Assembly (NCBI GenBank): GCA_001724265.1 | Contig: MEDY01000083.1 | Location: forward strand, 1 to 64,000 | DNA: 64,000 nt | Direction of reading: 5' to 3' | Origin: Rhizaria sp. SCN 62-66 | Lineage: Eukaryota | Part shown: one piece after another, positions 10,335 to 42,094 of the stretch | Layout: each line of letters begins with the position of its first letter | Position numbering within the stretch: position 1 is the stretch's first letter | Program-made: the position numbers and the translations under genes | The notes under the pieces: model-generated | The model's database searches: none | What the model saw: only the letters and a program-made list of their open reading frames with translations | Told to the model about the DNA's origin: nothing

Positions 10335-12050
10335 ATGCGCTCACAGTTGCTCCAACAGCTCGCCTCTTAGGCCGCCGGCCCCGCGCCCTCCTCCGTGTCA
10401 TCCTCTTCGAAAAGTACGACATATCCTCATCAAATAATGCCAATAACTCAAACAACACTTCTTTATTGTTAAAGAACTACTATTGTGTCCTTATACTAAT
10501 TTTTTTCTGTAATATCTCTTTATTGCATATCCCCGCAATCCTAACTTCACCTCACGCACCCAACGTGTCTACTCTCTGTTTCCCCCAGACTCGTCTGCGC
10601 ACCGCTACAAGCCGCTGCCGCCCGTGGTGCGCGACCTGCAGTCGACGCTGGCGCAGCTGACCTACGGCCCGGGCGCGCTGTCCGCCGCGCTGCACCGCCA
10701 CTTCGTGCCGCTGTCTCACGACGACGCCACCGAGCGCTTCCTCACGCGCACGCTCTCGCTCTACGGCGCGTGCTCGCTGTCCAACTCTCTCTTCTCGGGG
10801 CTGCGATCGCTGTTGGGCAACTTCATGTCGCACGCCAACGTGCTTGCGCTGCTCAACACGGGTCGTATGCACGTGCTCTCGGCGGGACAGATGCACCACC
10901 TGCTGGCGCAGAGCTACGCGCGCGCTCCGCTCGACGTCGCCACGCTCAACCCCGAGCAGGCTCTCGCCCGCGCGCGCGCAACCACCTTTGCCAGCTTCAA
11001 CCCAGTGCTCTCCGCGAGCACCGGCGCCCTCGCCGGGCCCCGCGGCAACAGCACGAGCAGCAACAGCAACAGCAACAGCAGCAGTTCTCTGTCTGGTGCC
11101 AACTCTGCTGCTGCTGGTCCCGGGCTGGGAGAGTGGGCCGCGCCGCCGCCGTCACTGGGCTCCATCATTGCCGCCATGCCCCCCTTAGACGGTGTAAGTG
11201 TCTCCCCAGCAGACGACTCGACTCCACCTGCTGAGACTGTGGGGATGACTGCGCCTGCGCCTGTTGCGAGTGCGCCTATGACCGCGGCGGACTACGTGAC
11301 CGCCGCGCTCGCTGCAGTGGGACCCGCTGTCGACACGGACGAGCTGCTCGAGCACGCCCAACAACAGCATCAGCAGCAGCGCAATACTGCCAACGGCAGT
11401 GCGAGTGCGAGCGAGGACTCTCTGTCGCTGCCGTGCTTCGGGTCGTACCTGGACATCGGGGCCGGCGACGGTGCGGTGACGGCGCACGTCGCGCCGCTCT
11501 TCACGCACACTTCGGCGACCGAGGTGGCCCCGCGCATGTGCTCTCGCCTGCGCGCGCACGGCTTCACCGTGTACGAGACTTACGATATCACCACGGGGAT
11601 CCCCGCCGAGGCGCGCTTCGACACCATCTCGATTTTCAACGTCATCGACCGCTGCGACAAGCCCCTCTCGCTGCTGCGCGACGCGCGCGCGCGCCTCCGC
11701 GGGCCTGACTCGCGGCTGGTACTGTCTGTGCCGCTGCCGCTGCAGCCCTCGGTCGAGTTCGCGCCGCGCGAGTGGCGGGCCCCGACGGAGCGGATCGCGC
11801 CCGCGATGTGCTACTGCCAGCTCGACTGGGAGCAGGCCGTCGAGTTCCTCGTCCGCGACGTCGTTACGCCCGCGGGGCTCAGAGTGCGCGCCGTGTCCCG
11901 GCTGCCTTATCTGTCCGAGGGGTCGACTGCCAGGCCCTACTACGCACTCGATGACGCCGTGCTTGTGCTCTCCGCCGCCGAAACCGTGCCTGCCGCTACC
12001 GCGACCGCTCCCGCGACCGCTCCCGCTACTACTGCTACTGCTGCTGCTGT

Positions 12051-12087
<37 letters not shown>

Positions 12088-12156
12088 CCGGCCGCGAGTG
12101 CGGGTGCGCATGCTGTGGCTCCGACTGCCGCTGTGACTGTTGTAGAGTAGATGTGA
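10335..12156 (+). CDS. METTL9: METTL9/DREV-family protein-histidine methyltransferase, 2 exons, with in-frame TAG codons
   Basis: Exon 1 is 10335-10413 (MRSQLLQQLAS[TAG]AAGP...). Intron GTACGA...CAG is 10414-10588; exon 2 is in frame with ORF 10624-12150. Motifs LLNTGRMHVLS, YLDIGAGDG, ATEV, FNVIDRCDKP, LPYLSEG, YYALDDAVLVL. Ends TAG-ATG-TGA (12148-12156). Confidence 0.88.
12025..12087 (+). repeat. Imperfect (GCT)n tract encoding a poly-Ala/Thr tail of METTL9
   Basis: Run of GCT/ACT/GTT triplets read directly. Confidence 0.85.
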
Positions 12157-12455: not shown

Positions 12456-15400
12456 TTAGACAGTGGAGAGAATGGCTTTGAGAACCCTGACAACGTCCTT
12501 CGCGGCAGACGTAAGGCCGCCATCGAACCCGCCACAGTCGCTGACAGCAGAGCCAGAGCTGCTCGGGGGAACAGCGACGCCCCACAGCACGCGCATGTCG
12601 ACACTCAAGGCCGACACACTGCTGCCGTCGTCAGTCATGCTCCGAGTGCTCCAGTGACCACCGCCACTCCCGCTTACATTGTGAGCAGGCGTGGCAGCGT
12701 TAACATGGTTCGCCGCGTGCAGCGCTGTGACGGCGGTGGTTGCCAGCGCGAGCGCCGCCCCCGCTGCGGCCGCGGCGCGCTGCGACATGGCGTTGGCGAC
12801 CGCATCGGCCGCCTGTGCAACCGCAAGCGCCGCGCCGGCTGCAGCGTTGCCGTCGCTAATGTTGTTGAGACTGCTGCTCATGCTCGCGATGCTGGTGTGT
12901 GCGAGAACCATTGCGCTGTGTAGATACGCGCCGGCCGCAGCAGAGACGTGCGACAGAGCGTCGCACTGGTCACTAACAGAGTTATTAAGAGCGGCAGCAG
13001 CGGGAGCAGGAGCAGCAGCAGCGGTCGAAGTGTAGGCGGTGACGGCCTTCGTGGCACGGAGCCTCGCGCGCACGTCGCTAACAGTGCACGCGACGCCGCC
13101 ACTCAAATTGCTATTTGTGGCGCCCGCGTTCGCGGAGAGCAAAGTCAGCCAGAGAGCCTTCCGGCGCACGGCGTGCGACAAGCAACGCAGGCCGACGACG
13201 ACGGCAACGGATGCCACCGCGCCCGCCACCGCCGCCGCCGCAGCCTCAGCATCAACACCTGCCTGCGGCGACAGCGACGGCGCCTGCGACTGCGTCTGGG
13301 CCTGGGACTGGGAGAGAGGCAGAGTCAACCAGGCGGTGGCCGTGGTGCGGAAGGGGTCGTGACGAGCCCATGGGCCGGGCTCAAGGCCGCCGCTGATACC
13401 GGCGCAGTCCAGAGACCCGCTGAACACACTGTTGCCAACGCCGAGAACATTGCTAACCGCACCATTGTTGCCACTATTGTGATTGTTAATAGAAATAGCA
13501 GAGGCAAGCGAGACTGTAGCGGGTGCGGTAGCCAGCGCGGCGCGCACGATGGCGGCCGCGGCGGCCTCGGCCTCAGCGTCGCGCACGTAGATCGCCAGCA
13601 GGTCGCAGAGCCTGTGCAGGGATGTGAGCACGTCGGGCGAATATAGCGACGCAATATCGACGAGACTGACGGCGCTGACACTGTTGCCGCTGCTGCTGCT
13701 CGCGCGAGTAAACGGGGGCAGCGGGATCGAGAGCAGCGTTGCGGGCAGCGGCAGTGGCGGCGGGTTAGCGGCAGCAAGAGGGACAGGCGGCTGGGAGCTC
13801 TGTTGCTGCTTGCAATTGTCGCAACTCTTGTTGATGCTGCTACTTGAGCTGGAACTGTTGTTGTTCTTATTCGTGCTCCCAGACACACTCTTGTTATTAT
13901 CGCGGTTGTCGTTCTTGCTGTTAGCGCTACTGTACTTGCTGCTGTCGTCGTAGTCGTCCTGATCATCGTTGTCAAACAGGTCGTGGAGCACTTCAGCTAC
14001 GCCACTGCTGCTGCGACTAAAGCCGCTCGAAACAGCGCTCGCGTGAGCATCGTCGTCGCGCATACGCACAGGAGCGGGAGTCGCAGTCTTGTTCGAATTG
14101 GCACGAGCACTCGCAGACGCAGCATTCGAAGCGGTATTGTGAGTCTTGATGTTTTGGGCGTTGTTCGCGGAGGCTTGCGCAGCTGCAGCCGCGGCAGCAG
14201 CAACGACATCGGCCGCAGTGGCGGGAGCGGCGGCCGCGGCGGCAGCGGCGGCTGTAGACGCCGCCTTGCGCGGGCTCGTCCGCAGCGGCAACGTGCTGGC
14301 GCGAGCAGCACTTGCACTGGCACTCGGCTGGCTGGAAGGGGGACTAACGTGACTCGAAACAGCAGCGCGAGCAGAGTTGACAGCAGCAACTGCAGCAGTA
14401 GCTTTGGTCGCGTTGCTGGCGCCGGGATTTGCGATGCTATCTTTGCTCTGAATAGCACGAGTAGAAATGGTTTTAACAGCTGCCACTGCCGGGGTTGCGG
14501 GAGCCTGCGCCTGTCGCGTCGCCTTCGTCGCCGCGATCGCCTTGAGCGTGGCCGAGAGCTGTCCATCAAGCATGAAGTTGCACATGTCTTCGATGCTCGC
14601 GTTGTGCGAGGGTCGTGGGGGCGCGCTTGCACTGGCTGCGTCTGCACTGCTTGCGCCCTGTTGTTGCTGCTGCTGTTGCTGTTGCTGCAGAAGTTGCGCC
14701 TGCTGCTGCTGCAGCTTGCGCCTGCGCTCCTGAGCCGCGATTTCGTCAGGAGAGTACAGAGACCATTCAGGACCGCCGCTGCCGCTGCTGCTGCTGCTGA
14801 TGTTACTGCTACTGCTGGTAGCGCCAGTACTCGCGCTGCTCGTCACACTTCCTCTGGTTACCGCGGCACTGCCGGTTGCGCCACTGCTTTTACTGGCACT
14901 GGCACTGGCGCTGGCACTGGGACTCGTGGTGCTGCGAGTCGTAATGCCTGCGTGTGCGAGAGAGCTGGAACGAGACACAGGGCTGGTATTATTGGCAATC
15001 TTAGTCGCGCTCGCGCTCGCTGTCACGGCTGCTGCCTGGATCGTGGACGCAAAGGGATCGGCGTTCGAAGCGGCAGCGCCGAAGCCAGGAACGCTCTGAG
15101 GAGCTGAGCCGTTGTGACTCCGGTCACCGGTGCGTTGATCACGGTCATAGCGGTTCGAGTTACTCCTGTTATTCATGTTATTGCTATTGTTGTTGCTATA
15201 GCTATTCGCATGAGCGTAGTTGTTGCCATTGCCAGTTGCAGTGCTAATGTTATTGTTATTGTTACTCGGGCGATACGCTGAGTGACTACTGCTCTTGTTT
15301 GAGTTGTTATTGCCATTCGGACGGATAGGACGTCCCCACGAGTTGTTTGGGTTCATACCTGTCTGCGACGCACTCGTGTTGCTCCTGTTGCTCGTGCGGT

Positions 15401-16073
15401 CACGCTCCCAGTCCCTGTCGCGCTCATGGTCGCTGCGGTCACGAGTGCCGTAGGTACTGTTGCTGTTGCCGTTGCTGCGGACACGGGCGCGGTTGTCACC
15501 GCGCTCACGGTCGCTGCGGTCGCGCTGAGACCGATGAAACTGCGACTGAGAATAATGACGCGGCGGCGACCGAGACTGTGACCGTGACCGAGACCGTGAG
15601 CGAGAGCGAGAGCGTGAATTCGAGCGGCCAGACGACCGCCTCGAATACCGCCGAGGCGAGCGCGAGCGCGAGCGTGAGCGCGCCGGCGAACGTTTCGGGG
15701 AACGAGAGCGTTTCGACGAGTGCGAGCGCCTCGGTGAACGAGAGCGCGAGCGCGAACCAGCAGGGGACCTGGGCTTTGGAGAGCGCGTGCGGGCCGGAGA
15801 GCGCGCGCGCGTCGGGGAACGCACAGCAATTGTGGTCCGCTTAGGAGAGCGCGAGCGGGAACGCGAGTGGGCGCGCTGTGAGGACCGCTGCAGCTGCTGT
15901 TCTGACTGCTTTTGCTCAGTGGCTGCGCTGTCACTCGCAGCTGGTGAGGAATCGGAGTAGACCCCCTTGATCTCCTTGGCCTCCTGAGTGGGAGCGATGT
16001 AAGTGGCGCGCATCGGGAGTGCGGTAGCAGTCGCGCGACAAGGGGAGGCGCGGCGCGCCGGGGATGCTGACAT
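12456..16073 (-). CDS. Uncharacterised ~1,205-aa low-complexity protein with an N-terminal RS/RSP-rich region
   Basis: Uninterrupted GC-rich ORF between AT-rich spacers, with RSRSRSP repeats, Asn/Ser/Ala/Gln tracts and stop TAA. No globular domain recognised. Confidence 0.75.
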   Translation of the reverse strand: MSASPARRASPCRATATALPMRATYIAPTQEAKEIKGVYSDSSPAASDSAATEQKQSEQQLQRSSQRAHSRSRSRSPKRTTIAVRSPTRARSPARTRSPKPRSPAGSRSRSRSPRRSHSSKRSRSPKRSPARSRSRSRSPRRYSRRSSGRSNSRSRSRSRSRSRSQSRSPPRHYSQSQFHRSQRDRSDRERGDNRARVRSNGNSNSTYGTRDRSDHERDRDWERDRTSNRSNTSASQTGMNPNNSWGRPIRPNGNNNSNKSSSHSAYRPSNNNNNISTATGNGNNYAHANSYSNNNSNNMNNRSNSNRYDRDQRTGDRSHNGSAPQSVPGFGAAASNADPFASTIQAAAVTASASATKIANNTSPVSRSSSLAHAGITTRSTTSPSASASASASKSSGATGSAAVTRGSVTSSASTGATSSSSNISSSSSGSGGPEWSLYSPDEIAAQERRRKLQQQQAQLLQQQQQQQQQQGASSADAASASAPPRPSHNASIEDMCNFMLDGQLSATLKAIAATKATRQAQAPATPAVAAVKTISTRAIQSKDSIANPGASNATKATAAVAAVNSARAAVSSHVSPPSSQPSASASAARASTLPLRTSPRKAASTAAAAAAAAAPATAADVVAAAAAAAAQASANNAQNIKTHNTASNAASASARANSNKTATPAPVRMRDDDAHASAVSSGFSRSSSGVAEVLHDLFDNDDQDDYDDSSKYSSANSKNDNRDNNKSVSGSTNKNNNSSSSSSSINKSCDNCKQQQSSQPPVPLAAANPPPLPLPATLLSIPLPPFTRASSSSGNSVSAVSLVDIASLYSPDVLTSLHRLCDLLAIYVRDAEAEAAAAAIVRAALATAPATVSLASAISINNHNSGNNGAVSNVLGVGNSVFSGSLDCAGISGGLEPGPWARHDPFRTTATAWLTLPLSQSQAQTQSQAPSLSPQAGVDAEAAAAAVAGAVASVAVVVGLRCLSHAVRRKALWLTLLSANAGATNSNLSGGVACTVSDVRARLRATKAVTAYTSTAAAAPAPAAAALNNSVSDQCDALSHVSAAAGAYLHSAMVLAHTSIASMSSSLNNISDGNAAAGAALAVAQAADAVANAMSQRAAAAAGAALALATTAVTALHAANHVNAATPAHNVSGSGGGHWSTRSMTDDGSSVSALSVDMRVLWGVAVPPSSSGSAVSDCGGFDGGLTSAAKDVVRVLKAILSTV

Positions 16074-16627
16074 CAAGTCAAGCTGAGCAGAGCAGAGACG
16101 CTCCTTGAGTTAAGAAGAGCTTGCAGAGTGAAATCAGTCGAAAACAAAGTTGCTCGGGTCGGTGCTATGCAAGTTCTGAACAAATAATATAACAAAGACT
16201 GAAAAATTGGCTCAAATTTATCGTCGGATCGAATGAAAAATGACTGTTTTACAGAGAATACACGTCACTGCAAATGCTGATAAACAATGCTCAATGAAGC
16301 GCGAAGCGAGAGTGACTGACACGAGCCGAGCTTTTTTGCGAACCGTGGCCGACCAAAATGGGAGTCTTCGAAGCAACCGTTTCTTCATCGTGAACTATCT
16401 CAGCTCCGGGCTTGGGATCGCCAAACGTCGCTAATTCTTCTTTGCTCGTATTGTTCGCTTAATAATTATTCTAAACATTACTTTGGTTTCGCGTCTCACG
16501 ACTTTCCTGCCCCACACTGCGTGCCTCTATTCCGACTCTCGCCGACCTCCTGCAGGCTACCAACAAGACACCACAAAGTCAACGTTTCCCCGCCGCCTCC
16601 ACCACTTTTCGTTCTGCTTTTAGCACC

Positions 16628-24619: not shown

Positions 24620-24632
24620 GCGCGCCGGCCTG

Positions 24633-24660
24633 CTCTCTCTCTCTCTCTCTCTCTCTCTCT
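24633..24660 (+). repeat. (CT)14 microsatellite in the aminotransferase 3' UTR
   Basis: Read directly. Confidence 0.95.
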
Positions 24661-25698
24661 GCGAAGTGGGGCGAGGACGTGAGACCCGGTTTTGTGTGCT
24701 TTCTAAAATCAGCTCCTGACTTGGCTCTCTGAGTCCAATTGCTGTTGCTTGCTTTGCTTTTTTGCGATTGTTTGTAAATAATGTACACGTGTGTAGTAAC
24801 TGTGTGAATGAATTCAGTATGTGTAGTGCGATTACTGTTTGTTTCTGTTGTTTGTTTGTTGTTGTTTTGACTCTCCTTAAGTGCAAATATGTGTGTGTGA
24901 TGTGTCAACAAAAAACTTCGACACATCATAAGAACACATACTGTTGTTACTTCTAAGCTTAACTAGAGCTGAGACAGAAGAACGCAAAAAGAGTAAAAGA
25001 TTATATTGTATCACGTATATTTCTATAGTTCCAACTTCGATGTAAGTCTGGTGTGATTTTACAAACATAACACGATAAGGAAGAAGAAAAGATTGTAAGC
25101 AGCATGCTTGTCTCTGGTGGTGTGAAGCTATGGCTGTTGTCCATGTTGCACTCCTGCAATTTAAGAACAATGCGTACTAACATAACACTATTTTCATCAT
25201 AATTATTATTCCAAATACAACTTATGTGAACCAAAACGTATCAACATCACTCTATGTCGCTCAAGGGGACGCGCGACGCGTTCGTGTTGATCACCACGTC
25301 GACGTTTCACACCAACTTGGTCATAGGTGCGGGTGGAAGGCCAGTCTCGAGCGCGGCAAGGCCTGGTTCTCGACCGTCATCAACGCTGGACTCCAGGAGT
25401 GCTCGATGCTGCAGCCTCTGACCACGTTCACGCATCTCGCCGTACAGTCGAACAACCTCGACGCTCTCACGCGGGCGCTCTCAACACTTTTTTACTCCAA
25501 TTTTTTCACGACGTCGAGTTACGAATTGCGAAAGAAACAAAGAACTATGTATAAAAATAATCAGTCTGAAATATAAACAATGCTTAAGCATAAACTATGG
25601 AATACTAAATTAAGCTCTGGTGTCGCTTTAATACTCATATTACTTTGACACATACAACAACAGTGTCTTGCTCACTCGGCACTCGCTCACACAGCAAC

Positions 25699-26622: not shown

Positions 26623-27525
26623 CTGCGCGAGAAAATCAAATGTTGTATAAACATGACGATAAGCAAAGCGGGGAAAATGCGAGGGGTGAACAAGACGAAG
26701 ATGGGGTTGTTTGTTGCTGTTTGCCTGTTGTGTGGTCATGTTTCAGAACGGATAGAGCAAGGTAGATTGGCATTGGCGGAGTGCATCAAATAAATTTGAA
26801 TATACAACACATGTTTAATATGCACTGCTGCCGTTTCACTTCCAGTGACGGTGGCAGTGTGTCTGTGTTACTCGTTTCATTCAAGCGCCCTTCACTCCTC
26901 TTGTCTGGCTCAGATCGCCAGTGCTAGTAAGCCACTAAAGTGAACTCGTGGCTATAAACAAATACAACTCAGATCGCAGTGATATATTTATGAATATATG
27001 CCAAAGTCTGGCTTCAAGTTTGATCATCAATTTTGTTATGTTATTCAAGTCAGAATTTCTTGAAAACTTGATGTCAGTGATATACAGCCAGTAATATAAA
27101 ACCCGGGTTCTAAGACACCTTTTTACGACATACTCATCATAATGTAGCAAAAGTTGTTTCTAACCAACTAGATAATTGATCTTAACCTTTAGAGGATGTT
27201 CTAAAAACAAAATGTCACATGAAACGTTTGATATCGTAACTGCTACAGAACACGAAAGTCCTCAGTCTTTCTTTGAACCAAAGAAAATCGAGATGATAAA
27301 AAGTGTTGACATGACTTCGACAACATTGTTTCATAACTGAACTGAAAGAGAATCCATAGAAAGTGTATAAATGGATTTGATTCGCATATATAACAACACT
27401 GGCCTAAAACAGACCTCTCATACTCAAACATCTTCCACAGACAATAAACAAGTTCAAGTTCAAGTGTTGGTGCAAAGAGTGGTACTAAAAGAACAAGCGT
27501 GTAACACATTTTACCCGCCTGCACT

Positions 27526-30500
27526 TCACTTCTTGCTCTTGCTCTTGCTGCTCGTCTTGGCGCTGCTCTTGCTCTTGTTGGTCATCATAGCCTCCATATC
27601 AACGTCGTCGCCGCTGTCGTCGTCGTCAGACATCGGCACCCTCGCGTCATCGTCGTCGTCGTCGTCACGCAGATCCGCTGCGACGCCCTTGCTGCGCTTC
27701 ACGCCCGCGGCCGCGAACGCGCTCGCCTTGGCCATCGCGGCCTTGGCGTCCGCATCATCGTCGTCATCGCCATTGTCGCTGTCCACAACAGCGGCGGCGG
27801 ACGCTGAGTCAGGCGCAGTGCGCTTGCGGTCCTTGTCCTTGCTCGGCGTCTTGGCGGCCTTGGGGACCTTGCGGCCCTTGGCCGACGCCGAGGCCGCGGG
27901 GCCCGCCGTGAACTCGTCCACCTCGTCGTCGTCGCTGTCGCCGCCCTTGCTCGCGCCCGCGCTGCCAGACTTGGAGGGCAGAATGTCGGCGAATAGCTTC
28001 TTGATCTCGCTCTTGCGGCTCTCCTTGCGGTCGCGGAACGCCTTTTCCGTGTTATCTTCCTCTTCCTCCTCGAGCTCCTCCTCGTTATCGCCGCCCTTGG
28101 CGTCCTTGCCTTTCTTGCCCTTGCCGTCCTTGCCGTCCTTGTCGCTAGCCTTCCCGTCGTCCTTCTTGCCCTTGGCGTCAAAGGCCTTGGTCGCGCCGCC
28201 GCTGTTGTAGTTGCCGCTGCGCGACTCGACGCCGTTCCATATCACGCCTGTCTGCTTGTACTCGGGCACGCGCAGCTTGCGCAGCAGGTTCAGCCCACCG
28301 CGCGAGACGGAGATCTTGCGCTCGGCCGCCACAAGCTCGTGGATGATGCGCGCGCGGTTCTCCTGAGAACGCGAAGAAGAAAAACACAAATGTGAGGACA
28401 TATGAATTGAGTCGAATTGATTATGTTATGATCACTTTAGATGCATGTTGGTAAAAGTGACGCATTGTGCACCCTTGTTGCGACCGCCCCTTCGTCGCTC
28501 ACGGTCCTGCGATCCTAAAACTAACAGTTGAGAATAACGATGACTGACAGTTAAAAACGACGATAACGTACCTGGTCGACGCGGACGTAGAGCTTCTCGA
28601 TGACAAAGCCCGCAGCCGGGGAAGAGCACACGAGCATGCCCAGGTTGCCGGGGCCGCGGTACTCCTTGCCGTCACTCATGTTAGAGCACAGGCGGCGCGC
28701 GATCTTGCACTTCTCCCTGTGAACAAAAAAAATATATAAGCAAACAATAAACATAATATTGGTGAGTAATTGAGTATAAAACGTTTAGTGCACGGGAAAT
28801 TAGCATATTTTTCATATGCTATCTTAGATTTAACGGAATTATCATTAATCAATGGTTCATTAAACTCGAAATTAACATTATAATGCCGTTTTGCGGAAGC
28901 CGTACCTGGCACTGGCGCGGCTGACGACGTAGCTCTCGACGGCGCGCGCGCCGGTGGGGTCCCTGAGCAGCGCCGTGAGCACAGGCCCCGGCAGCGCCGT
29001 GAGCGAGGCGAAAAATGGCGCCGCGGCCTGCGGGGCAAAGCCGAAGAGCGAGGACAGAATCTGCGCGCCGAGGTAGTTGCCACGCGTGAACTCCGAGTCG
29101 CCCTGCTCACGGTCGCTGCCGCGGCGGCGCGCGCCGCCGTCCTCGCCGCCCTTGCCCTCGGCGGCGGTAGCGGGGTCGCGCGCGTTGAGCGTGAGCACGT
29201 CGATGACCAGCTGACCCTCGCGGTTGCCCTTGCGCTGGCCGCCGAACACGCCCATGACCTGCTTTGCCACGGCGGACTGACGGCACCCGATGCGGCGCGC
29301 GGCCTCGACGACCTGCCACACGACACCCGCCTTGCCCTCCTTGACGAGCGTGAACAGGTCGTCCTTGAGCTGCTCGTAGCAGAGTGTGTAGCTCGTCTCG
29401 TCCCGCAGCGCGCCGAAGAGCCGCTGCACTGCGTGGTTACCCATGCGGTCCTTGGCTAGCGATAGCAGCTTGTTCTGCGTGTGCTTGAACAGGAACGACT
29501 GCAGCAGCGCAGGCGGAGAAGACAAAAACAGCGCCTCCATGAAGTGCGACGCGACCGGGTCCGTGAAGAGGTCGTTGACGTGCTTGACGGAGCCCGGACC
29601 GAGCTGCCACACCAGGTTCGTCAGCGGCAGCTCTTCGCTCTCGCCTGCGTCGTCGTCGTCGTTGCCGGACTTCTTGTGCTTCTTTTGATCTTTCTTGTCG
29701 TCCTTCTTGGACTTCTTGCGAGACTTGGACTCCTCGTCATCATTCTCGTCGTCATCGTCGTCGCTGTTGGCGGCGGCGGCAGCGGCAAGATCGGAGGCGG
29801 CGTCCTCGTCCTCCTCCTTGGCCTTGGCCTTGGCGGCCTCGATGCCCGCGCTCTCGGCCGCCGCGCGCGCCTCGGCCGTGGCGCTCTCGTCGAGCTTCCA
29901 GCCCAGCATGCGCGCGATCAACTTCTCCAGCGTCACAATGTGGTTCACCTTGCGCACGCGCGCGCCAACGGCACGCATCAGCGCCTTGATCACAGGCATC
30001 GCGCAGGGATCGAACGCCAGGTTCATCACATCCGTTGCGGACTTGTGGTTCACGAGTGCCATAACCATCCAGGGGAGCACTTCCTTCAGGCGCTTGATGT
30101 GCGCGCGCGAGCGGCCGACGAGGGACAAGAACGCGGCGTTCTCGTCCGCGTCGGTCAGCACAGAGCCAGAACTGTTCGCCGCGTTGTTGCCCCCGTAGCT
30201 GTTGTTGTTGTTACTATGGGCCGAGGCGGGGGGCTTGTAGCCGGTGTGGTGGGCGCGCTTGTCCGTGCCGGTGGAGATGTCGCCCTGCGTGACGCCGGTG
30301 TGGCCAGCCAGAACGAGAATCAGCGTGCGCATCACGTACGAGGCCTGGAGGCGCGTAGTCAATAATGAGGAAAGATAGAAAGGAGCGATAAGATGTTACT
30401 ATATCGAGACAGAGCTTAGATAGACAGTAAATAATCGTATCATTTACAAAATAATAAAGATTAATTTTAATAAGTTCTAAAATACGTTAGATATGTTCTT

Positions 30501-31444: not shown

Positions 31445-33200
31445 CGAGATGCGGGCGAAGCTTGAGTGAAGGGTGGAGGAAATGAAAGAGTGGCAGGAAA
31501 GTGAGATAAGAGTTTGGTGAACAATAAAATAGGTAAAATATAATATGCAGCCTTTTAATGCTATTAAAAGCGTTTAATTTGCTAATGACGAACAAAAGTA
31601 GCTCATTTGAAGGCAGGTCCGGCGCTGGGTGTGCGGAGCGATAGAGCTTCTCGACTTGTGGCTCGTTGCTCTGCTTGACCACTGGTGAGTAACTCTGCGA
31701 CGTTAACTCTATTTGACCGCTTGTCTCAGTACTACTCTTTGTTTTCTTCATTGAAACTCAAATATGTTATTTATAGTCGAGTATTGTATATTATAGTTAC
31801 GAGTTCTCTGCATAACTTATTATATCCCGCCCTATTTTTACACTTTACTCTGTACATCTCGACAACGGCGTATCTGGCTTTAAGTGTAGCATGCAGTCCG
31901 TGACAGGAGTTGTGACAGCAGTGGCATATAATCCTCCATATAACCATCAATTATTGACATGATACTACACTTTTCTCGCGTGAGCTGGTCACTTAACCTC
32001 AAGTAGCAGAAATATGTCTCCGAGTATGTGTAACATTTGTGACACAGCTGCTGAAACAATGGCAGACAGCGCTGTAGGAATGCAGATACTACGCTGCTAA
32101 AAGCGCTCACTGCCTGCACCTCTGTCAAATGAAGCCCAGGGTGTAGTAAAACCACCGCTCCAGTGACTCGGAGCAGTGACAGTCGGTCAGCCGCAGTGCT
32201 AAAAGGAACTGCGATGCAACTAAAGTGAACAAATCCTGCTATACGATAGCCTTAATGAAGCCATGTACTGACACAGCCGCGCTTAAAGCATAAAAACAGG
32301 TTATATAACAAGACGATGCTTTCATAGACCCAATGAACCTTCGATAATCAGTGCTATGCGTTGCATTAGCACTTTGTCCACGCCTGCCCAAAATCACGCC
32401 GGATACCAAAGACCCTGCAGCAAACATACTTCCAGAAGACTTGAGACGACTACGTTTTACTAAAATACGTAAAGCACCACAAAACCACGATTAGCAAAGT
32501 CTCGGCCTCAAAAAGCACGGTTTTGACTATGAACACATTACTTTGCCTTCGCGAGAGATGCATGGGTGCGGAGGTCCGATAGCCACGCTTGGCGCGATCT
32601 CGTAAGCAAGATATTTCCTACTTCCGACCATCCTGAGCTACTTCCGTGGTACCATCAGTTGTGTATAGCTGTTTTCTTTGTGAATATTATTTTGAAATCC
32701 TCCCTGTGCGCGCATTTGCGGCGCACAGATACCCTTCTGCTTCCGAGCAGCCCTCTCGGTCACACACTCTGACGTCTCGCCCCGCTCCCGTCCTTCTTAG
32801 CGTTTTCTATTCTGACTGGAAAGTTCCTGCTTGCTTGTGCGACGCTTCTACTACACGCATAGGCTTTGCTTCTCTCTCCGCAACTGCTTTTTCGTTTACG
32901 CATAAACTATGCACTGGACTAAGAATGACGAGCGAAGGACTAGGACAATGGGCTTTTTACTCCACCTGCATTTTTCCTTCATGACGCTCTCCAGCATCAC
33001 TGCATAGCGATGCGATGCATGTTATTGTGCCAATTGCTTTCCCATTTAGTATTATCCTGATGTCATTTTCTCACTGAACTCCGTCCTCCCCCTCCACTAT
33101 CATAGGCAGACACAAGCACAGCCCACCCCGCATCTCACCCGCCCCGCAGCGCCCCCCACAAGAAGAAGAAGACCCGGCCGAAAACCGTTTTGTGTACAGG

Positions 33201-35871
33201 ATGCTGTCCCGTCGCTTCCTCTCCCGCTGCCCGGTGCCGCTGCCCGCCGCGTCGACGGCCAAGACGGCCGCCGCGGCCTTCGCCTCCGTCTCCGCCTTCA
33301 CCACCCTCATCAACAGCAAAACCAACAAAAGCGCTCCGATGACGCCCGTCGCGACTGGTGCGACCGCGACCAAGACTGCCGCGGCGCACCCTCTGCTGAC
33401 GCCCACGCTGCGCCGCTTTTCGCCCCTTGCCAGCGCCAGCAACAACGTCATCTCCCTCTCTTCCCACACTAAGTTTGCCAAGCCCAACAAGAGCTCCACG
33501 TTCGCGTCCCGTCTCTTCTCCTCCTCGTCCTCCAGCGCGAGTAGCAGTTCCGCGGCCGACGCGATGGCGCTGTCGGGCAGCGGCATTATCCCCGTCAAGG
33601 AGCGCTACACGGCGGCCGAGGTGCGCTACATCATGTTCCTGCTCGACGCGGGCATCATCGCCGCCGAGGCCCTGCCGCCCGCGCTGCGCCCCGCCGACGC
33701 GCCCCCCGCCGCCGGCTCCGGCGCCAAGGCGGGCAGCAGCGCGGTGATGGCAACGCCGGCCAACTCGACGACGGCCGAGGTGGACGTGTCCAATTTCGTC
33801 CCCGCCGACGTCTTCCTGCTGCTGCTCAACACCTACACTATGACGCTGCCGGAGAGCGAGCGCCACAAGGTTTTCCAGCGCGAGTACAACCGCTACCACT
33901 ACCTCCAGGCCCAGGCGCGCTTCTCCGCCACCTCCGTCGTCAACAGGGAAATGGACAAGATGAAGGCCGCGCTCCAGGTACGTTTCACAGAAATGTGCAG
34001 ATTTAAATTAAACTTGTTAACTTTGTAAGGGACCTGAGCTTTTTCAGATTGACACCCGAAGGCTTTTGACTGGTGGTAGACACTGCGGTGACTTTTTTTA
34101 TGTCATGCTGTATTGTAACTAAGGCAACTTGTTATTAGGTTAACTTTGAAATGACTTTATCGAAAGCTAAAAGAATCGCTCAAAAGAATCACTATCAGAA
34201 ATGTACATTCTTAATTCTCACATCGCCATTTTATTCTTTGTTCTCTCTCGTCCCTCGACTCCCCAGGCCGAGGGCGGCGTCGGCGCTCCCGAGCCCGAGG
34301 TGGTGATGGGCACGTTTCGCACCAACTTTGCCACCGGCGAGGTCGAGTTCTCTGATCCCTCCCTTTTTCGCAACCCCGTTGCCAAGCAGCAGCACTAGCA
34401 ACTCACCAGTGGCTCCTCAGACGCGGCGGCCGCAGGCGCAGCGGCGGCGGCCGCAGGCGCCAAGGGCGGCTTGACGGGCTCGGGCTCTGGCGCGAGCGCG
34501 AGTCGTATGATGGCGTACAACAGCGGCATGGCGCCTGTGCCCAACAGCTTCGAGGACACGTACATGCTCGACGAGAGCAACGCCGACGCCGTCCTCAAGA
34601 AGCGCAACAAGATGTTCACCAGCATCGACCTCAACAACGACGCCGCCGGCAGCGGCGGCAGCGGCCCCGCGACGACCCCGTTGTCGTCGAAGCGTTCTCC
34701 GCGCAATGCCGACGCCAGCGGCAGCGTCGGCGGCAACGGCGAGAAAGGCACGGTGCTGGCCGCGACGGCGGACCCCAACGTCAGCGTGAGCGTCGCCGTG
34801 GCGTCCCCGCAGAGCGCGCGGCGCGCGCTGCAGGCGCAGGAGTCGGCCAGCAGCGCCGCTGAGGCCGGCAAGGAGGGCTTCTTCGCGAGGCTGCGCCGCA
34901 ACCGCGCGAACAAAAGCGCCGCGGCAGCCGCCGCCAACATCAACAGCTTCAGCTCATTGTTGTCGGCGCACGTGACGCTGACCAAGCCGCGCATCTCGCT
35001 GCTGGTGGCCATGACGTCGTGGTGGGGCTACTTCCTCACCGTGCCGCACGGCGCCGTCGACATGACCAACCTCACGGGGCTCACCATCGGCACGCTCTCG
35101 CTGGCGGCCGCCGCGAGCGTCATCAACCAGATCCGCGAGACGGACGTCGACGCGCGCATGACCCGCACGGCCACGCGCCCCCTCGTCTCGGGCAAGATCT
35201 CTATCGCCAGCGCCAAGCGCGCCGTCGCGCTCTACACCGCGCTGGGTGCCGCTGTGCTCACAGTCGTCGACCCCATCGCCGCCGGACTCGGGCTCTTCAA
35301 CGTCTTCCTCTACGGCGGCGTCTACACCAGCCTTAAGCGCGTCACGCGCCTCAACACCGAGATCGGCGCCATCGTGGGCGCGATCCCGCCCCTGATGGGC
35401 TACGCCGCCGCGCTGCCCGCCGACGCGAGCTTCCTGACGTACGACCCCGTGGCGATGCTGTGGCCCGCGGCCGTGATGATCGCGTGGCAGATGCAGCACG
35501 TCATGCTCATCTGTCTGCGCCGCTCCGAGGACTACAACCGCTCCGGACTCGTCATGGAGTGCTTGAACGACCCTTCGCTGATGCGCACGCGCACCAAGGG
35601 CGTCGCGTGGGCCGCCGTGACCACCGCGGTCGTGGCGGCGCCCTACTGGGCTGGGTACATGGACATCCGCCACATCTTCATGGTCTACGTGTGGGGCATC
35701 TATACTGCGCTCTACGCCTCGGGCGCGCTCAGCAAGATCCCCAAGCAGCGCGTGCTGCTCATGGCGCTCTACCTCGGCTACCTCATCCTCGGCGCCACCA
35801 TGTGGATGTCGTGCGTCACCAAGAACAAGACCGAGGAGGACAAGTACAACGACCTCATGCTCAACCTTTAA
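33201..35871 (+). CDS. COX10: Protoheme IX farnesyltransferase (heme O synthase) with presequence and long N-terminal extension, 2 exons, one in-frame TAG
   Basis: Exon 1 is 33201-33977 (MLSRRFLSR...). Intron GTACGT...CAG is 33978-34266. Exon 2 (34267-35871) is one frame except for TAG at 34396-34398. UbiA/COX10 motifs LTKPRI, NQIRETDVDARMTRTATRPLVSG, YTSLKR, GAIVGAIPPLMG. Stop TAA. Confidence 0.9.
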
Positions 35872-36952: not shown

Positions 36953-37025
36953 AGCCGCATAGCACAGTCGGAAGTGCGCCCGCTTTACACGCGGGAGGTA
37001 ATGGGATCGAAACCCATTGCGGCTA
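36953..37025 (+). tRNA. tRNA-Val (anticodon TAC)
   Basis: Full cloverleaf: acceptor AGCCGCA/TGCGGCT plus discriminator A, D stem GCAC/GTGC, anticodon stem CCCGC/GCGGG with loop TT-TAC-AC, T stem ATGGG/CCCAT with loop ATCGAAA. Confidence 0.93.
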
Positions 37026-37032
37026 CGCTTAA

Positions 37033-37041
37033 TTTTTTTTT
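37033..37041 (+). terminator. Oligo-T Pol III terminator of tRNA-Val
   Basis: T-run 8 nt downstream of the tRNA 3' end. Confidence 0.8.
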
Positions 37042-38542
37042 GCTTCTGCGACTTCCGCAACCAGGCGCATCAGCAAGGCGCTCATGACCATTTTTTTTTG
37101 CAACCCCCGGCGCTCTCCGACCCCGCGACGATAACTTTCAGTCACTTCTGGCGCTCTGTCAGTGCTCAGCGGTGTCACGCTATGTAACACTGTGCTGCTT
37201 GTTGTTTGTAAACAGTTGACCTGCGAGCAGTGATCCTGTCCAAATATGGATATGGGGCAGATATCAAGTGCTGGGAAGCTGCTGTCAATGTTCCGCCGTT
37301 GTACATGTCCAGCATTTACATTTCCTGTTAATACTTGCATTCCGTGTTCAGCTGGCGCGTGTACCGCGCTGTTGCCAGTCGGTAGCGCACGAACTGTGTG
37401 TAGTTTCCGCGCACGGCTGTTGGTCCCCTTTTCGCCGCGCCGCTCTTTCTTACCCCCGTAAGACTCGCGCCGACTTTGCGCTATTTCTCTCATCACTTCT
37501 AATATCACTCTGTGCGGCCGCCGTCGGCGCCCTCGCACTTTGGTACTAGTACTGTTGACACGCGCTTTGCTTCCTTTCATCTTGCGCCACGCGCGTGCTT
37601 GACTCATATGTTTGTGTTTGCGCTTCCGTCGCCGCTCTTCGCCACAGTCGCCGCCGCCTCTCATTGTCGCTGCCGCACTCTGCTGCCGCTTCCGCGTCGC
37701 AGCTCTTCGCTTCCCCGGCCACGCCACGACTCTGACAGCCCTTGTCACTCCTCGCCGTCGACTCCGCCTTAAAAGCGGCCCGCTTGCACCTACCGGCTTA
37801 TCTGCGCATTTATAGTCAACACCGGCGTCGGCAACTGTTTGCTTTGAGAACGCGCATTGTGTTACGGTCGTATCTATGCACATGCAGTTTCCTTTTGCGA
37901 AATCCGTCGCGCTACCCGCAAACGTCGCGGGTAATAAAAAAATGCGTTTAAGCACATAAAAACGACGCAGCGCGCTTGATAACGAGCACGTGGACGAAGC
38001 TATGGTGCCACTTGTAACTGGTTTGAGCTTGAAGAACCAAACCTGCGAGCACTAGATCACTGTCAGCGAAGTGGTTTTTTAAGGCAAAAGATCAAAATCA
38101 AGTGTGTATTAACAATACTCTATATTAAGCAGTTCAAACAAAGTTGAGCTTATTTTTTTGAGGTATAACTACCTCTTATCGAAGCACGTGCATCATCATA
38201 CATTTTTCTCGACACTGTAGGCAAGATATACTTGGCTGAGTAAACATTTCTACATCAATTAAACTTGAATTACAAAGCATCATAGTGTCAACATAATATA
38301 GCAAAGTTCAAGGCAATTATATAATGTTTTCATGGAGATATCCTTCAGAAACTGTCTCTGAACAGACCCGTTACAGCGTGACCGAGGGTGACTGTGGGCT
38401 GGCCCTCGCGAAAGGCAGAAGAGGACAGTTAGAAGACCGCGAGTCCGGGTGTTCGCAAGTCTGTTTGTATCTAGCGTATGTGATCGTCGCTTGCGTTTGT
38501 TTACCGCTCACAAGTTTTTTTATTTCTTTTGGTTCTTTTTAG

Positions 38543-41500
38543 ATGTTTTCTCGCACCGTAACTGCGTGTCGGGGGGCATTCCATGGCCCGATTCAGATGC
38601 CGGCCCAGCCTCCGCGTCTGACTCCCTCCTCCTCGTCTTTCTCGTCGTCCCCAAACAACCGCCGTGGCGGAAACGCTGAGGAAGCGTCCTCTGCCATGGT
38701 TTCCCGCGTCGAGAACTCTCTCCGCTCTATGCTGCGCACCACCACGCCTGCTGCGGAGGCCCTCGTCTCGAGTCTCCCTGCGCTCAAGCGCGCTGCTCTG
38801 CGCGACACGATGACCGAGACCGACGGCTCCTCTCTGTCGGCCTCCTCCGCGGGCGCCGCCTCGGGCATCTCCTACGTCGAGCGCGTGGACCGGCTTGCGC
38901 AGCTGCCGCGCGTCGACGGCGTGCGCTCCCCGCTCGTCGCCGACGCCCTGGACGAGGCCGCGCTGCACCGCGCCGCGCACCAACTCGGCGCGCGCGTCGT
39001 CGCGCTCGACGCCTCGGGCAAGCCCGTCAACAAGCTTGTCGGCGGTGGAGAGGCCGTGCTGCTCGAGAGGCGCCGCGCGAACGCCGCCGCCGCGCTGGCC
39101 GCCGTCTCTCGCCAAAGCAACAGCACCACTGACGTCGAAAACGATAATCAAGGGGACAACGACCCGACGTCTCAGAGCGCGAGCGCTCGTCTTGACTCCG
39201 ACTCGGCGCCGTTCGCAGCAGCCTCAGACTCCACCGACAACAATACCAGCGTTAGCTCCAGCTCTAGCTTCAGTTATAGCGCCGTTGCCTCGAGTGCGAG
39301 TGGCGACCACGCCGACGCGCCTCGTGTGGACCCCGACTGGAGCGCTGATTTGCTCGAACTGGGGCTCTTTGACTCGCAGGTCAAGCAGCAGCACCTGACC
39401 GACGGCGCGACCTTTGCGCTCACGCACAAGTCGCAACAATACCATGAGAATGAGAATGACGACGATGAGGCTGGTTATGGCTTTGATAGCAACAGTGTGA
39501 ACAATAACACGTCGTCGTTTTCGGGCTCGTTGCACGCCGAGCGCGACGCTAACGCCGCGAGTGCGGCCCGCGGCGCACAGTTCTCCCTTCCCCCGAACCC
39601 GAGCAGCAGCAACAGTACCAAGAGCGGTGCGAAGCAAGTCTCGTCTTCCGCGAGCGCGTCCTAGGACGCTCGGTCGAGCGCCTCGCACTTGGACGACGGG
39701 TCCAAGGGGCCCGTTCTCTACACCACCCGCACGCCGGCCTCGCTGCCCATCACAGCTCGCCTCAACGAGTCCATCTCCTCTGCATCCAACGACAGTAACA
39801 CTTCTACCAACGGCTCGCTGAGCGCCGCAGTGCGGAAGACTCTCGCGCCCGCGCTGTCGTCGTCCGCCGCGCTGCCCGACGGCGTGTCCCCGTCGGACGC
39901 GGTCTTCACGCACGGCCTCATCCTGAACCCCGACGCCGTCTCGGCCTCGGCGTCCTCAGTGGCCACGGTCCCCGCGGAGGCCGTGGAGCGCGCGCACCGC
40001 GAACGCATCCGCGACACGCTGCGCGGCTTCGCGGCCGCCCGCCGGCGCGGCGAGCTACGGCGCGACGACGGCAGCGCCATGACGGTCCGCGAGGCCGCCG
40101 CCGCGCTGGGCGTCAATGTGCGCGGGCAAAAGGCGCTGCGCCGGCTCGAAGAGACAGGCGAGGTGCCCAAGGAAGCGATCCCTGCGCTGCCGACCACGCG
40201 CGAGGTCTCCAAGTCCTACGGTAAGCTGCTGGTGCGCACTCTGCACGACGTGGCCGCGGTGGTGGCCGAGGTGGGCGAGAGCGCGGCGACGGGCGGGCAG
40301 CGCGAGTGGGTCGACAAGGCCTCGGGCCGCACGGTCATGCTCCCACCCTCGGACGGCGAGACGACGGCGCACCTGCCGCCGCCGCTAGCCGCGGCCGTCG
40401 AGTCTGCCGAGAAGGTGTTCAACTCGTTCGTGCTGACGGCCCCGCTGGAGGCGACGCACTACGCGATGATGATGACGTTGTACGGGCGCGTCGACATGCC
40501 GATCAAGGCCGCGGCCGCGTTTGACGCGCTCCGAGCCTCGGACTCGGCCGTGCCAGACACGGTCGCGTTCAACGTCATGCTGGGCATCATGGTGCGCGCC
40601 AACAAGGTCGCCGCGGCGTGCCAGCTGTTCGAGGAGATGCGCAGCATGGCGCACGTCACGGGCGCCTCCCCCGACGCCGTGACCTACACCACCGTCATCT
40701 CCGCGCTGGGTAAGATCGCCGACCGCGCTGGCGCGCTGACGGTTTTCTCGCAGATGCGCAAGGACGGCATCGCACCCACCGTGCCCGCGTGGACGGCTGT
40801 GATCGATGCCATGTGCCGCGCCAACGACTTCAAGGCCGGACTGCGGCTTCTGCACGACATGCGCGAGTCGGGCTCGGTGCCCACCGCGGGCACCTACCGC
40901 GCCGTCGCCGTCTCGTCCTGCCGCGCGGGCCACGTCAAGCTGTTCCTTGCGCTGGCTGAGCAGATGCGGCGCGACGGCCACGCGCTCGACCCCGTCCTGC
41001 TCGCTTCCGTCATCCGCGGCTTCGGCGAGGCGGGCAAGGCGCTGGAGGCCATCCGCGTGCACCGGCAGCTCTCGCTGGGCGCCTTCGGGCCGGAGCTGCG
41101 GCCGACGCAGCTGACGTACAACGCGCTGCTCGAGACGCTCGCGGACCCGCACGCGTGGGGCAAGCTGTCGCTGCCGCCGCTCGCGCTCGACGCCGGCATG
41201 CAGGTGCTGCAGGAGGGCATCCTGTCGGGCATTTTCCCGTTCCCGTACGAAACGCGCGATCAGAGCGGTGTGCTTGACTTGAGGCCGTACCACCGCAACG
41301 CCGTGCTGTTCCCCATTCACCTGTTTCTGAACTTGTTGGTGTCGCCGATGCTGGTTTCTGCGGACCGCGTGGCGCGCATGCCGTCGACGATTGCACACGT
41401 AGACCGGTCCTCCGACTTCGTCTTCAGCTCCGTGGCGATCCCCCGGCGCGGCGTGCTGATGCTGGGCGCGCGCGAGGCCCGCAAGCCGTGGTCGGCCGCG

Positions 41501-42094
41501 CCGCGGCCGATGCCGTACAACGCGGGCGGGAAGCTGCGCGCGCACGGCGGCGTGGTGCACGACCCCGTGCTGCTGCAGGACGAGGCGGCGCGGCCGTCGC
41601 GCGAGTACATCGAGAACGTGCTTAAGTCCACGCGGCCCTGGGTGCACTCGCAGCGGCTGAACCAAAACGCCTGCGCCGTCATGGTCGCTACTGCCACGCT
41701 CCAGTTTTGGGTCAAGGACCAGTTCCGCCGGCTCGAGATTTCCAAGCACCACGCCGCCGTCATGCAGCAACACTCTCAGTCGCAGTCGCAGTCCGCCAGT
41801 AGTCGCGCCAACGCGGCCATTGCGAGCGCGGCGGCCAGCAACGGCAACAGCGCGAACAGCGCTAACGCCAGCGTCAGCGCTAGCGCTAGCGCGAGTGCGA
41901 GTACGGGTGCGGGTGCGAAGAAGAAGGTCCGTTTGACTGAGCGCGAGAAGGCGGCGCTGACGAACGAAACGGCGTCGCCATACGCGCAGCTGCAGCGCGG
42001 GCGCAAGCTCCGCCTGGAGGATGTTGCGGAAGCGGTGGTTGTGGCGACTGCGGAGCGAAAGACACAGGGACGGCAGAGGAAAAACGACTATTAA
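38543..42094 (+). CDS. Pentatricopeptide-repeat protein, probably mitochondrial, single exon with one in-frame TAG (~1,183 aa if read through)
   Basis: ORFs 38543-39664 and 39689-42094 share a frame and are separated only by TAG at 39662-39664. PPR motifs PDTVAFNVML, PDAVTYTTVISALGK, PTVPAWTAVIDAMCR, PTQLTYNALL. N-terminus MFSRTVTACRGAFH. Stop TAA. Confidence 0.85.

Follow-up and report, generated by a model that had tools for sequence, protein, structure and literature searches.

The window, a 64-kb stretch of nuclear DNA from an uncultured, intron-bearing and GC-rich eukaryote, originating from wastewater and bioreactor metagenomes, contained 16 to 17 genes with about 16,500 modelled codons. 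The presence of genes for COX10 and CFAP91 indicates that the organism is aerobic and flagellated. The 18 modelled introns were AT-rich and 135 to 289 nt long; five of them were supported by cDNA, and the one clearly spliced cDNA among the records listed (X9) belonged to the gene at 22264-24619. All of the 17 reference donors contained the core GTA[AC]G, with scores of 9.6 to 16.5. The only tRNA identified in the window was tRNA-Val(UAC). It was also noted that the IF-2B protein matched only clusters labelled as bacterial in the Protein Atlas. The models of the three genes considered here for in-frame TAG codons were as follows:

10335..10413, + strand: predicted exon 1 of METTL9 (DREV), 79 nt, phase 1, with ATG at 10335 and TAG as codon 12
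10414..10588, + strand: predicted intron 1 of METTL9, 175 nt, GC 0.37, GTACGA..CCCCAG, in the style of the five cDNA-supported introns
10589..12156, + strand: exon 2 of METTL9, DREV methyltransferase domain (Pfam PF05219, E 9.3e-43)
33201..33977, + strand: exon 1 of COX10, starting with MLSRRFLSR, a conserved N-terminal extension (BLASTP against P0003, E 1e-35)
33978..34266, + strand: COX10 intron, 289 nt, GC 0.37, cagGTACGTT..CCCCAG
34267..35871, + strand: exon 2 of COX10, with a conserved block, the TAG, a linker, the UbiA prenyltransferase domain (Pfam PF01040, E 8.8e-37) and a TAA end
38543..42094, + strand: PPR protein gene, one exon, 1183 codons, ending in TAA

TAG codons in COX10, PPR and METTL9

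A reading of the sequence confirmed the TAG codons at 10368, 34396 and 39662, in the frames claimed by the initial annotation. In the spliced COX10 model of 793 amino acids, codon 303 is the TAG at 34396-34398. This model aligned end to end in a global alignment with P0003, a single ORF of 753 amino acids in a relative; the intron is needed because collinearity with P0003 requires the removal of 33978..34266. Identical residues amounted to 130 of the 237 aligned 5' of the TAG, and to 297 of 477 beyond it. The 43 amino acids preceding the TAG matched P0003 with an E-value of 6e-16 (25 of 31 residues identical), the TAG itself being located inside an 11-residue insertion missing from P0003, and the first Met past the TAG (MMAYNSG) aligned with non-Met residues (FTVFNSG). 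A search with the COX10 alignment of metagenome contigs and genome contigs identified no related loci.

The TAG at 39662-39664 is codon 374 of the PPR ORF that starts with the ATG at 38543. The homolog in the relative (P0095, 832 amino acids, 60% identity) covers PPR residues 322-1178, and thus spans codon 374. The 87 amino acids preceding the TAG matched P0095 with an E-value of 0.002, and the 131 codons from the TAG to the next ATG were 54% identical to P0095 (E 1e-33). Since these 131 codons are conserved ahead of the next ATG, their translation must come from upstream. The segment 39665-40057 had a GC3 of 0.89 and in-frame coding scores of 0.82/0.93 bit per codon. The TAG is located in an unconserved Ser/Ala run, in a region where the window sequence is shorter than P0095. 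Neither P0003 nor P0095 contained a TAG at the corresponding place.

COX10 and PPR proteins belong to mitochondrial families. In both genes, the presequence-like N-terminus lies upstream of the TAG, represented by the first 60 amino acids of COX10, which contain no acidic residues, and by MFSRTVTACRGAFHG in PPR, while the next downstream Met precedes acidic residues. The comparisons with the relative show that the coding sequence runs in the same frame through the TAG in both genes.

The question of assembly errors, raised in the initial annotation, was settled for these two sites by DNA contigs from other studies. The comparison was made for a 20-kb stretch that covered 34396 and 39662, with site 10368 lying outside. 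The COX10 site was spanned by X3 record 5 (a DNA contig from another study, 32576-35213) and the PPR site by X3 record 7 (38095-40859) and X4 record 16 (39230-40455), all with 0 differences. In addition, the JGI metagenome contig L001 was 100% identical over 2915 nt to 38121-41035, including the PPR TAG. The TAG codons in COX10 and PPR are real DNA, not assembly errors. Among the RNA records listed for the same 20-kb stretch, none covered 34396 or 39662. An RNA-library contig (X5 record 20, 33913-34176) read unspliced into the COX10 intron at its donor, and the source library may therefore contain DNA or pre-mRNA. A search for loci related to the PPR alignment recovered only L001, from the same organism, and a homolog search with the read-through PPR protein only a distant PPR protein of Perkinsus, the candidate lists being swamped by low-complexity words.

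Only the predicted 79-nt first exon places a TAG (10368-10370) in frame in METTL9. No in-frame ATG was found in exon 2 ahead of the segment matching DREV profile positions 8-82, and an upstream start is needed because the profile already begins 5' of the exon's first in-frame Met. The only in-phase combination of an ATG and a donor contains the TAG; the ATG codons at 10125 and 10160, upstream of exon 1, open short ORFs. The predicted donor core, GTACG at 10414, was the best in 10101-10590, yet its score was 2.7 compared with 9.6 to 16.5 for the 17 donors. At the 3' end, the sequence TAG-ATG-TGA was verified at 12148-12156, and METTL9 could genuinely stop at this TAG. The homolog search with exon 2 recovered the same organism only, again with candidate lists swamped by low-complexity words, and the protein clusters of PPR and METTL9 contained no member that spanned the TAG site with a sense codon. 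One variant in the METTL9 cluster had a deletion of 5 residues within an Ala run and an identical end point.

Stop codons and coding signal in the window

Our own gene models gave the same stop codon numbers as the initial annotation:

TAA-ending genes (n = 9): adenosine kinase, 12456-16109, CFAP91, BCNT, 22264-24619, COX10, PPR, 42398-46662 and the giant ORF
TGA-ending genes (n = 5): IF-2B, SET, Brix, rhomboid and NOP9
25181-25576: possible small ORF with a TAA end

Apart from METTL9, where TAG-ATG-TGA is compatible with either reading, none of the 15 genes had a terminal TAG. The chance of this outcome is about 0.013, assuming that TAG makes up about 25% of the stops in a genome with the standard code. 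No gene in the window requires TAG as a terminator. An ORF on the + strand that ends in TAG (27371-28210) was antisense to the last exon of NOP9 and was rejected as a gene.

As a control, all six reading frames were scanned for stop triplets flanked by 40 or more stop-free codons in both directions, and a coding score of more than 0.2 bit per codon was required on both flanks. Window-wide, such a two-sided coding signal was obtained for 2 of 81 TAG triplets, which were those at 34396 and 39662, for 0 of 184 TGA triplets and for 0 of 40 TAA triplets. Neither TAA nor TGA was found internally in the multi-exon models, and both act as terminators in the window. In-frame UAG codons were extremely rare, about 3 of the modelled codons or about 0.2 per 1000, with none in the 5692 codons of the giant ORF, as had been claimed.

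Reading of UAG and alternative explanations

Since TAG is located within at least 2 intact, conserved genes, UAG is most likely read as an amino acid. We consider that UAG is very probably translated in this organism and, on balance, hold it to be probable that it is decoded as an amino acid, as a very rare sense codon, with UAA and UGA as terminators. This meaning of the three codons was proposed in the initial annotation, and was strengthened by the single orthologous ORFs of COX10 and PPR and by the two-sided control, whereas its METTL9 case was reduced to a predicted exon.

The alignments agreed with the statement that the sites lie in poorly conserved segments. All three TAG codons were in an insertion or in unconserved low-complexity stretches and none (0 of 3) at a conserved column, so that UAG is so far confined to poorly conserved low-complexity linkers. 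With only three UAG codons and none at a conserved column, no preference for a residue can be demonstrated. The proposal of Gln as the best guess was not supported: COX10 has its TAG in an insertion and PPR in an unconserved run, Ser suits SSSASAS*DARSSAS and QQLAS*AAGPAPSS, two of the three contexts, as well as Gln does, and TCG is very common here (190 of 8337 training codons). Pyrrolysine was rejected as the residue, as the TAG codons occupy linker positions that are not conserved, and we know of no precedent for it in eukaryotic nuclear genes. Frameshifting or bypass was rejected because no TAG is accompanied by a change of reading frame.

If decoded as an amino acid, UAG would be read by a tRNA with a CUA anticodon, whose ancestor probably differed at a single anticodon position (Gln CUG, Ser CGA or Leu CAA), and recognition of UAG by eRF1 would be weakened. 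A search of the 64-kb window did not identify a tRNA(CUA), nor is eRF1 among the genes of the window. The TAG sites may have arisen by point mutations from CAG or TCG to TAG in tolerant segments.

Under the standard code, near-cognate tRNAs could allow leaky readthrough of UAG, gene-specific or general, giving a short N-terminal product in addition to the full-length protein; we think this unlikely, though by no means negligible. It would fit the extreme rarity of in-frame TAG and its restriction to unconserved linkers, the small number of terminators sampled and the possible stop of METTL9 at TAG, and the COX10 site UAG-CAA-CUC resembles the leaky plant-virus context, which is UAG-CAR-YYA. 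In readthrough of the tobacco mosaic virus type, ribosomes pass an in-frame UAG, normally producing a minor extended isoform. The COX10 site shares the CAA after UAG, but the full-length protein is here the conserved functional form, and neither of the other two contexts fits. The codons at the three sites (TAG-CAA-CTC, TAG-GAC-GCT and TAG-GCC-GCC) have no common downstream context, the following bases being C, G and G, and they are found in 2 to 3 of the 16 to 17 genes, while the 15 other genes are without a clear TAG terminator. Furthermore, the presequence part of COX10 and PPR must join the enzyme part, each protein being encoded as one ORF in the relative, and if readthrough were only partial, most of what an essential gene produces would be wasted. 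A context-dependent dual use, with UAG as sense inside genes and as stop near the 3' ends of mRNAs, the situation in genetic codes that lack dedicated stops, appears improbable: the METTL9 TAG, two codons ahead of TGA at the gene end, fits either reading, but it is the single candidate for a terminal TAG, 15 genes end in TAA or TGA, and the window gives no call for such a mechanism.

Two further explanations retain the standard code. Removal of TAG from the mRNA, by RNA editing or by very short introns ending at the AG of the TAG itself, is quite improbable. Segments of the form GT..TAG that preserve the frame do exist in COX10 (21 nt, from 34378) and PPR (27 nt, from 39638), and the COX10 TAG segment is missing from the relative, but the donors of these micro-introns scored -8.3 and -7.9, far from the reference donors, and the modelled introns are at least 135 nt long and AT-rich. 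In addition, the sole METTL9 segment after the ATG (25 nt) disrupts the frame, and PPR is already shorter, not longer, than P0095 at the TAG. We regard genuine premature stops, in recently broken or split genes or as a population variant, as very improbable. The three TAG codons are indeed located early or mid-gene in tolerant segments, and prokaryote-style gene callers have split genes there, the public gene calls for COX10 and PPR being broken at the TAG, with P0002 and P0247 beginning after it. However, three events within 64 kb would be needed, including one in COX10, a gene on which aerobic life depends, and the sequence is identical across assemblies from different studies and years. The coding signature and the conservation are intact on both sides, and the downstream parts are without a presequence-like start.

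Within the reading of UAG as an amino acid, we tentatively suggest an incipient reassignment in an unrecognised non-ciliate aerobic flagellate, in which UAG would have gone from the gene ends and be just returning in disordered linkers of low-constraint proteins.

Comparison with known UAG reassignments

UAA and UAG nearly always change meaning together, and the few lineages described as splitting them include an uncultured rhizarian, Iotanema, Scotinosphaera and some ciliates (PMC11687900, PMC5304391). Such lineages allow tests of how eRF1 and tRNAs distinguish the two codons. Reassignment of UAG alone to Gln has been described for Iotanema spirale, Protocruzia tuzeti, Hartmannula sinica and Trochilia petrani (PMC5304391, PMC11687900). 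As in the accounts of these lineages, UAG is here in frame within genes and UAA, together with UGA, is still a stop, and a transition from CAG to TAG would explain the COX10 run KQQH*QL. However, tens to thousands of UAG codons at conserved Gln columns are described there, whereas only three were found here, none of them conserved. With introns of 135 to 289 nt and GC-rich genes, this organism is no ciliate. Nor is it an anaerobic fornicate such as Iotanema spirale, which has an oxidase-free lifestyle, since it has COX10.

UAG alone is reported to encode Leu in the rhizarian exLh, for which 384 in-frame UAGs in 71 genes are given, mostly at conserved Leu, and in three genome bins of phyllopharyngean ciliates from TARA (PMC5304391, PMC11687900). 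The separation of UAG from UAA is shared with these lineages, as is a tRNA(CUA), predicted or found according to those reports and predicted here, but none of the three contexts points to Leu. In the green alga Scotinosphaera, UAG is mentioned as a codon for serine (PMC11687900). UAG would likewise be sense and UAA a stop here, 2 of the 3 sites are in Ser/Ala-rich runs and TCG is common, but none of the window's genes was recognised as plastid-related. The frequency of UAG is far lower than in the UAG-reassigned lineages as described in these papers.

Reassignment of UAG alone is already known and rare. No report of a eukaryote with UAG as a sense codon from activated sludge or wastewater was found in the open-access library searched. 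If confirmed, the organism would represent a new lineage with this code, possibly at an early stage, and as a further non-ciliate lineage it would add an independent origin of UAG-only reassignment. Its value would be greatest if UAG proves to be still very rare there, as an early stage of reassignment could then be revealed; should the incipient reading be true, the genome would provide a natural snapshot between the loss of a stop codon and the takeover of that codon by a tRNA. The splitting of COX10 and PPR in public gene calls also has a practical side, since it affects how this organism and its relatives are annotated in wastewater metagenomes.

Gene content and introns

The window is contig sequence from an uncultured eukaryote. 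It is GC-rich (about 0.50 to 0.72 in 2-kb windows), and eukaryotic housekeeping genes were identified in it with Pfam. The functions of the COX10 and CFAP91 families indicate that the organism is aerobic and flagellated.

Features of the window (protein-coding genes recognised by Pfam, and one RNA gene)
555-1799, minus strand: IF-2B family gene
pfkB-type kinase
SET-domain protein
Brix
DREV/METTL9
CFAP91
BCNT
rhomboid
NOP9
33201-33977 (exon 1), 33978-34266 (intron), 34267-35871 (exon 2), plus strand: UbiA/COX10, spliced, 793 aa, TAG at residue 303
36953-37026, plus strand: tRNA-Val(UAC), in the AT-rich region that separates COX10 from the PPR gene
PPR protein
46921-63999, minus strand: giant ORF of more than 5,692 codons with two cyclase domains (PF00211)

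The giant ORF is uninterrupted and continues past the window edge; its two domains are adenylate/guanylate cyclase catalytic domains, the only ones that Pfam recognises in it. The genes at 12456-16109 (minus strand, about 1,217 codons) and 42398-46662 (plus strand, about 1,310 codons) had strong coding scores and matched no family in the Pfam search.

The introns in the window are AT-rich and 135 to 289 nt long. As a reference for intron style we used the gene at 22264-24619 (plus strand): a single spliced cDNA contig (X9 record 25) backs all six of its exons and shows its five introns. These start with GTACG or GTAAG and end with AG, and the same donor core was present at all remaining modelled introns, giving 17 donors in total. 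The reference gene ends in TAA, and the N-terminus of its product, MFARRVSKLSK, is presequence-like. Multi-exon models without internal stops were obtained for this gene (6 exons), NOP9 (4 exons), CFAP91 (3 exons), and the 42398-46662 gene (3 exons).

Two short ORFs outside all gene models, at 25181-25576 (plus strand) and 31989-32186 (minus strand), had positive coding scores. The latter contains an in-frame TAG at 32099; it scored weakly, at 17 bits over 64 codons, and no RNA depth was seen for it among the table rows listed.

Coding sequence on both sides of in-frame TAG codons

The initial annotation had placed in-frame TAG codons inside the genes for METTL9 (10368), COX10 (34396), and the PPR protein (39662). 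All three are present at these positions and in these frames, in the sequence as well as in the gene models, and the observation is confirmed. It also holds that METTL9 ends in TAG-ATG-TGA, that 9 genes end in TAA and 5 in TGA (10 in TAA if the possible small ORF at 25181-25576 is counted), and that UAG is absent from the giant ORF (none in 5,692 codons). The TAGs at 34396 and 39662, both of which were tested against independent contigs, are real DNA: DNA contigs from other studies (X3 and X4) span the two sites with zero differences, and a JGI metagenome contig from the same organism was 100% identical over 2,915 nt that include 39662. Internal UAG codons numbered 3 in about 16,500 modelled codons, and all three were located in low-complexity, unconserved segments. 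The remaining high-GC3 ORFs that end in TAG were either antisense to window genes or exons reading into an intron.

A database search with COX10 exon 2 read through the TAG identified P0003, an orthologue of 753 aa from a related organism that is encoded by a single ORF, with 99% query coverage. The alignment of the spliced model with P0003 is end to end, beginning at the initial Met (MLSRRFLSR versus MLSRRHLGR) and reaching the final residue. Upstream of the TAG, 130 of 237 aligned residues were identical, and downstream of it 297 of 477. Exon 1 alone matched P0003 with an E-value of 1e-35, and the 43 residues directly before the TAG did so with an E-value of 6e-16 (25 of 31 identical). Downstream of the TAG, the first Met of the window protein occurs in MMAYNSG, which was aligned with FTVFNSG; P0003 therefore has no start at this position. 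The TAG itself lies within an 11-residue segment, NPVAKQQH*QL, that is absent from P0003, so that the alignment is silent on the residue encoded by UAG. An upstream ORF forming a separate gene that ends in TAG was ruled out by the collinear single ORF of P0003.

The sequence before the TAG (33201-34395, plus strand) encodes an N-terminal extension of about 300 residues with conserved blocks, such as VFQREYNRYHY and EPEVVxGTFRTNFxTGEVEFSDP. These are common to the window protein and P0003; the N-termini of the more distant relatives P0004 and P0005 differ, and a Pfam search with the extension returned no family. It was also noted that one contig of the X5 library of polyA RNA crosses the boundary between COX10 exon 1 and the intron without splicing (33913-34176); it could stem from pre-mRNA, from a retained intron, or from DNA present in the library.

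For the PPR gene, the read-through protein was used as the query of an exhaustive phmmer search, which identified P0095, an orthologue of 832 aa that aligned to query residues 322 to 1178 and thereby spanned codon 374, the TAG. The 131 codons from the TAG to the next in-frame ATG showed 54% identity to P0095 (E-value 1e-33), and the motif PVLYTTRxPAxLPxTxRLNES, which lies only 14 residues past the TAG, was common to both proteins. In this stretch GC3 was 0.89, and the in-frame coding score resembled the scores of confirmed coding sequence. The stretch contains no ATG, and by the eukaryotic scanning rule it is therefore translated from upstream, across the TAG; prokaryote-style gene callers begin it at a TTG (P0096 and P0247). 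The upstream ORF of 373 codons had a strong in-frame coding score, a presequence-like start, and a short, weak, collinear match to P0095 (15 of 29 identical, E-value 0.002). The alignment column of the TAG is unconserved.

As a control for chance, a six-frame codon model was trained on five ORFs that contain none of the three TAG sites. Stop triplets were collected from all frames of both strands wherever 40 stop-free codons preceded and followed them, and the 40 codons to either side of each were scored. Scores above 0.2 bit per codon on both sides were obtained for 2 of 81 TAG triplets (34396 and 39662), 0 of 184 TGA triplets, and 0 of 40 TAA triplets. The two-sided coding signal is specific to TAG.

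The in-frame TAG in METTL9 is plausible and is located on a predicted exon. The frame of exon 2 opens only at 10513, and positions 8 to 82 of the DREV profile match its residues 30 to 105. Since this match begins before the first in-frame Met, read from the translation at about residue 79, translation must begin upstream of exon 2. Among the donors, only GTACG at 10414 has the core typical of the organism; it would yield an exon 1 of 79 nt from the ATG at 10335, in phase with exon 2 and with TAG as codon 12. This donor scored 2.7 on a 12-position matrix, compared to 9.6 to 16.5 for the 17 reference donors, but was nonetheless the top-scoring one in 10101-10590. A homologue search with exon 2 recovered the same organism only and thus gave no orthologue support. 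Also against the model, two short ORFs precede the proposed start (10125-10300, plus strand), one of 19 codons from ATG 10125 to a TGA and one of 46 codons from ATG 10160 to a TAA, the latter encoding an Arg/Ser-rich peptide; they would be uORFs if the transcript begins that far upstream.

Alternative explanations and the meaning of UAG

Most likely, UAG directs the insertion of an amino acid in this organism, and translation terminates at UAA and UGA. The proposal that UAG is a sense codon is supported in part, namely by coding across the TAG in COX10 and PPR, but this support does not extend to the residue or to the genome-wide status of the codon. The main rival, which we regard as doubtful, is a standard code with leaky or programmed readthrough of UAG. 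The rarity of internal TAG sites agrees with it, as does the CAA after the COX10 TAG, which resembles a leaky readthrough motif; against it, conservation extends over the full-length proteins, and a clear case of termination at TAG is absent from the window genes. The one terminal TAG, in METTL9, would suit a dual use of UAG as both stop and sense codon, which seems improbable.

We consider it very improbable that the code is standard and that very short introns end in the AG of the TAG itself. Removal of 21 nt from COX10 or 27 nt from PPR would preserve the frame, but the donors score about -8, unlike the introns of the organism, and no candidate segment preserves the frame at METTL9. It is unlikely that the genes are broken or that the TAGs are variants: three such cases would have to fall within 64 kb, the sequences are identical across studies, and the coding signal is intact on either side of the TAG.

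Under reassignment of UAG, the simplest mechanism would be a tRNA with the anticodon CUA, incapable of pairing with UAA, combined with an eRF1 whose affinity for UAG has been lost. Passages in PMC5304391 give this mechanism as the one inferred for other UAG-only lineages. The RNA genes within the window comprised tRNA-Val(UAC) only, with no tRNA(CUA). The rarity of UAG and its unconserved sites fit a reassignment that is recent or still carries a slight cost, and fit equally well an efficient natural suppression without full reassignment. Gln, the residue initially favoured, is reasonable for KQQH*QL, but Ser is equally suited to SSSASAS*DARSSAS and LAS*AAGPAPSS; TCG, with 190 of 8,337 training codons, ranks among the most frequent codons.

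Comparison with known UAG-only codes

Passages in the literature describe reassignment of UAG only in the rhizarian exLh (Leu) and Iotanema spirale (Gln) (PMC5304391), and in Scotinosphaera (Ser), Protocruzia (Gln), and phyllopharyngean ciliates (Leu once, Gln twice) (PMC11687900); one ciliate is described with UAA as Lys and UAG as Glu (PMC11687900; PMC10553269). The case presented here works like the described UAG-only codes, and membership of this class is shown in part, with two of its six defining features found: in-frame UAG in genes conserved on both sides (COX10 and PPR), and no UAA or UGA inside coding sequence. Compared to the known UAG-only lineages, the frequency of UAG is very low, and the introns and GC content set the organism apart from the ciliates among them. 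Iotanema is an anaerobe that lacks the oxidase, and by that trait the organism studied here, which has COX10, is not a fornicate. It probably represents a new lineage in which the code has changed in a known way.

DNA of the window occurred in runs that several studies obtained from wastewater, bioreactors, and activated sludge, and a search of the open-access literature returned no report of a UAG-sense eukaryote from wastewater. At 26914, just upstream of the rhomboid ORF, one X5 and one X4 contig from the same study contain an insertion of 10 nt that the window lacks, probably a strain difference.
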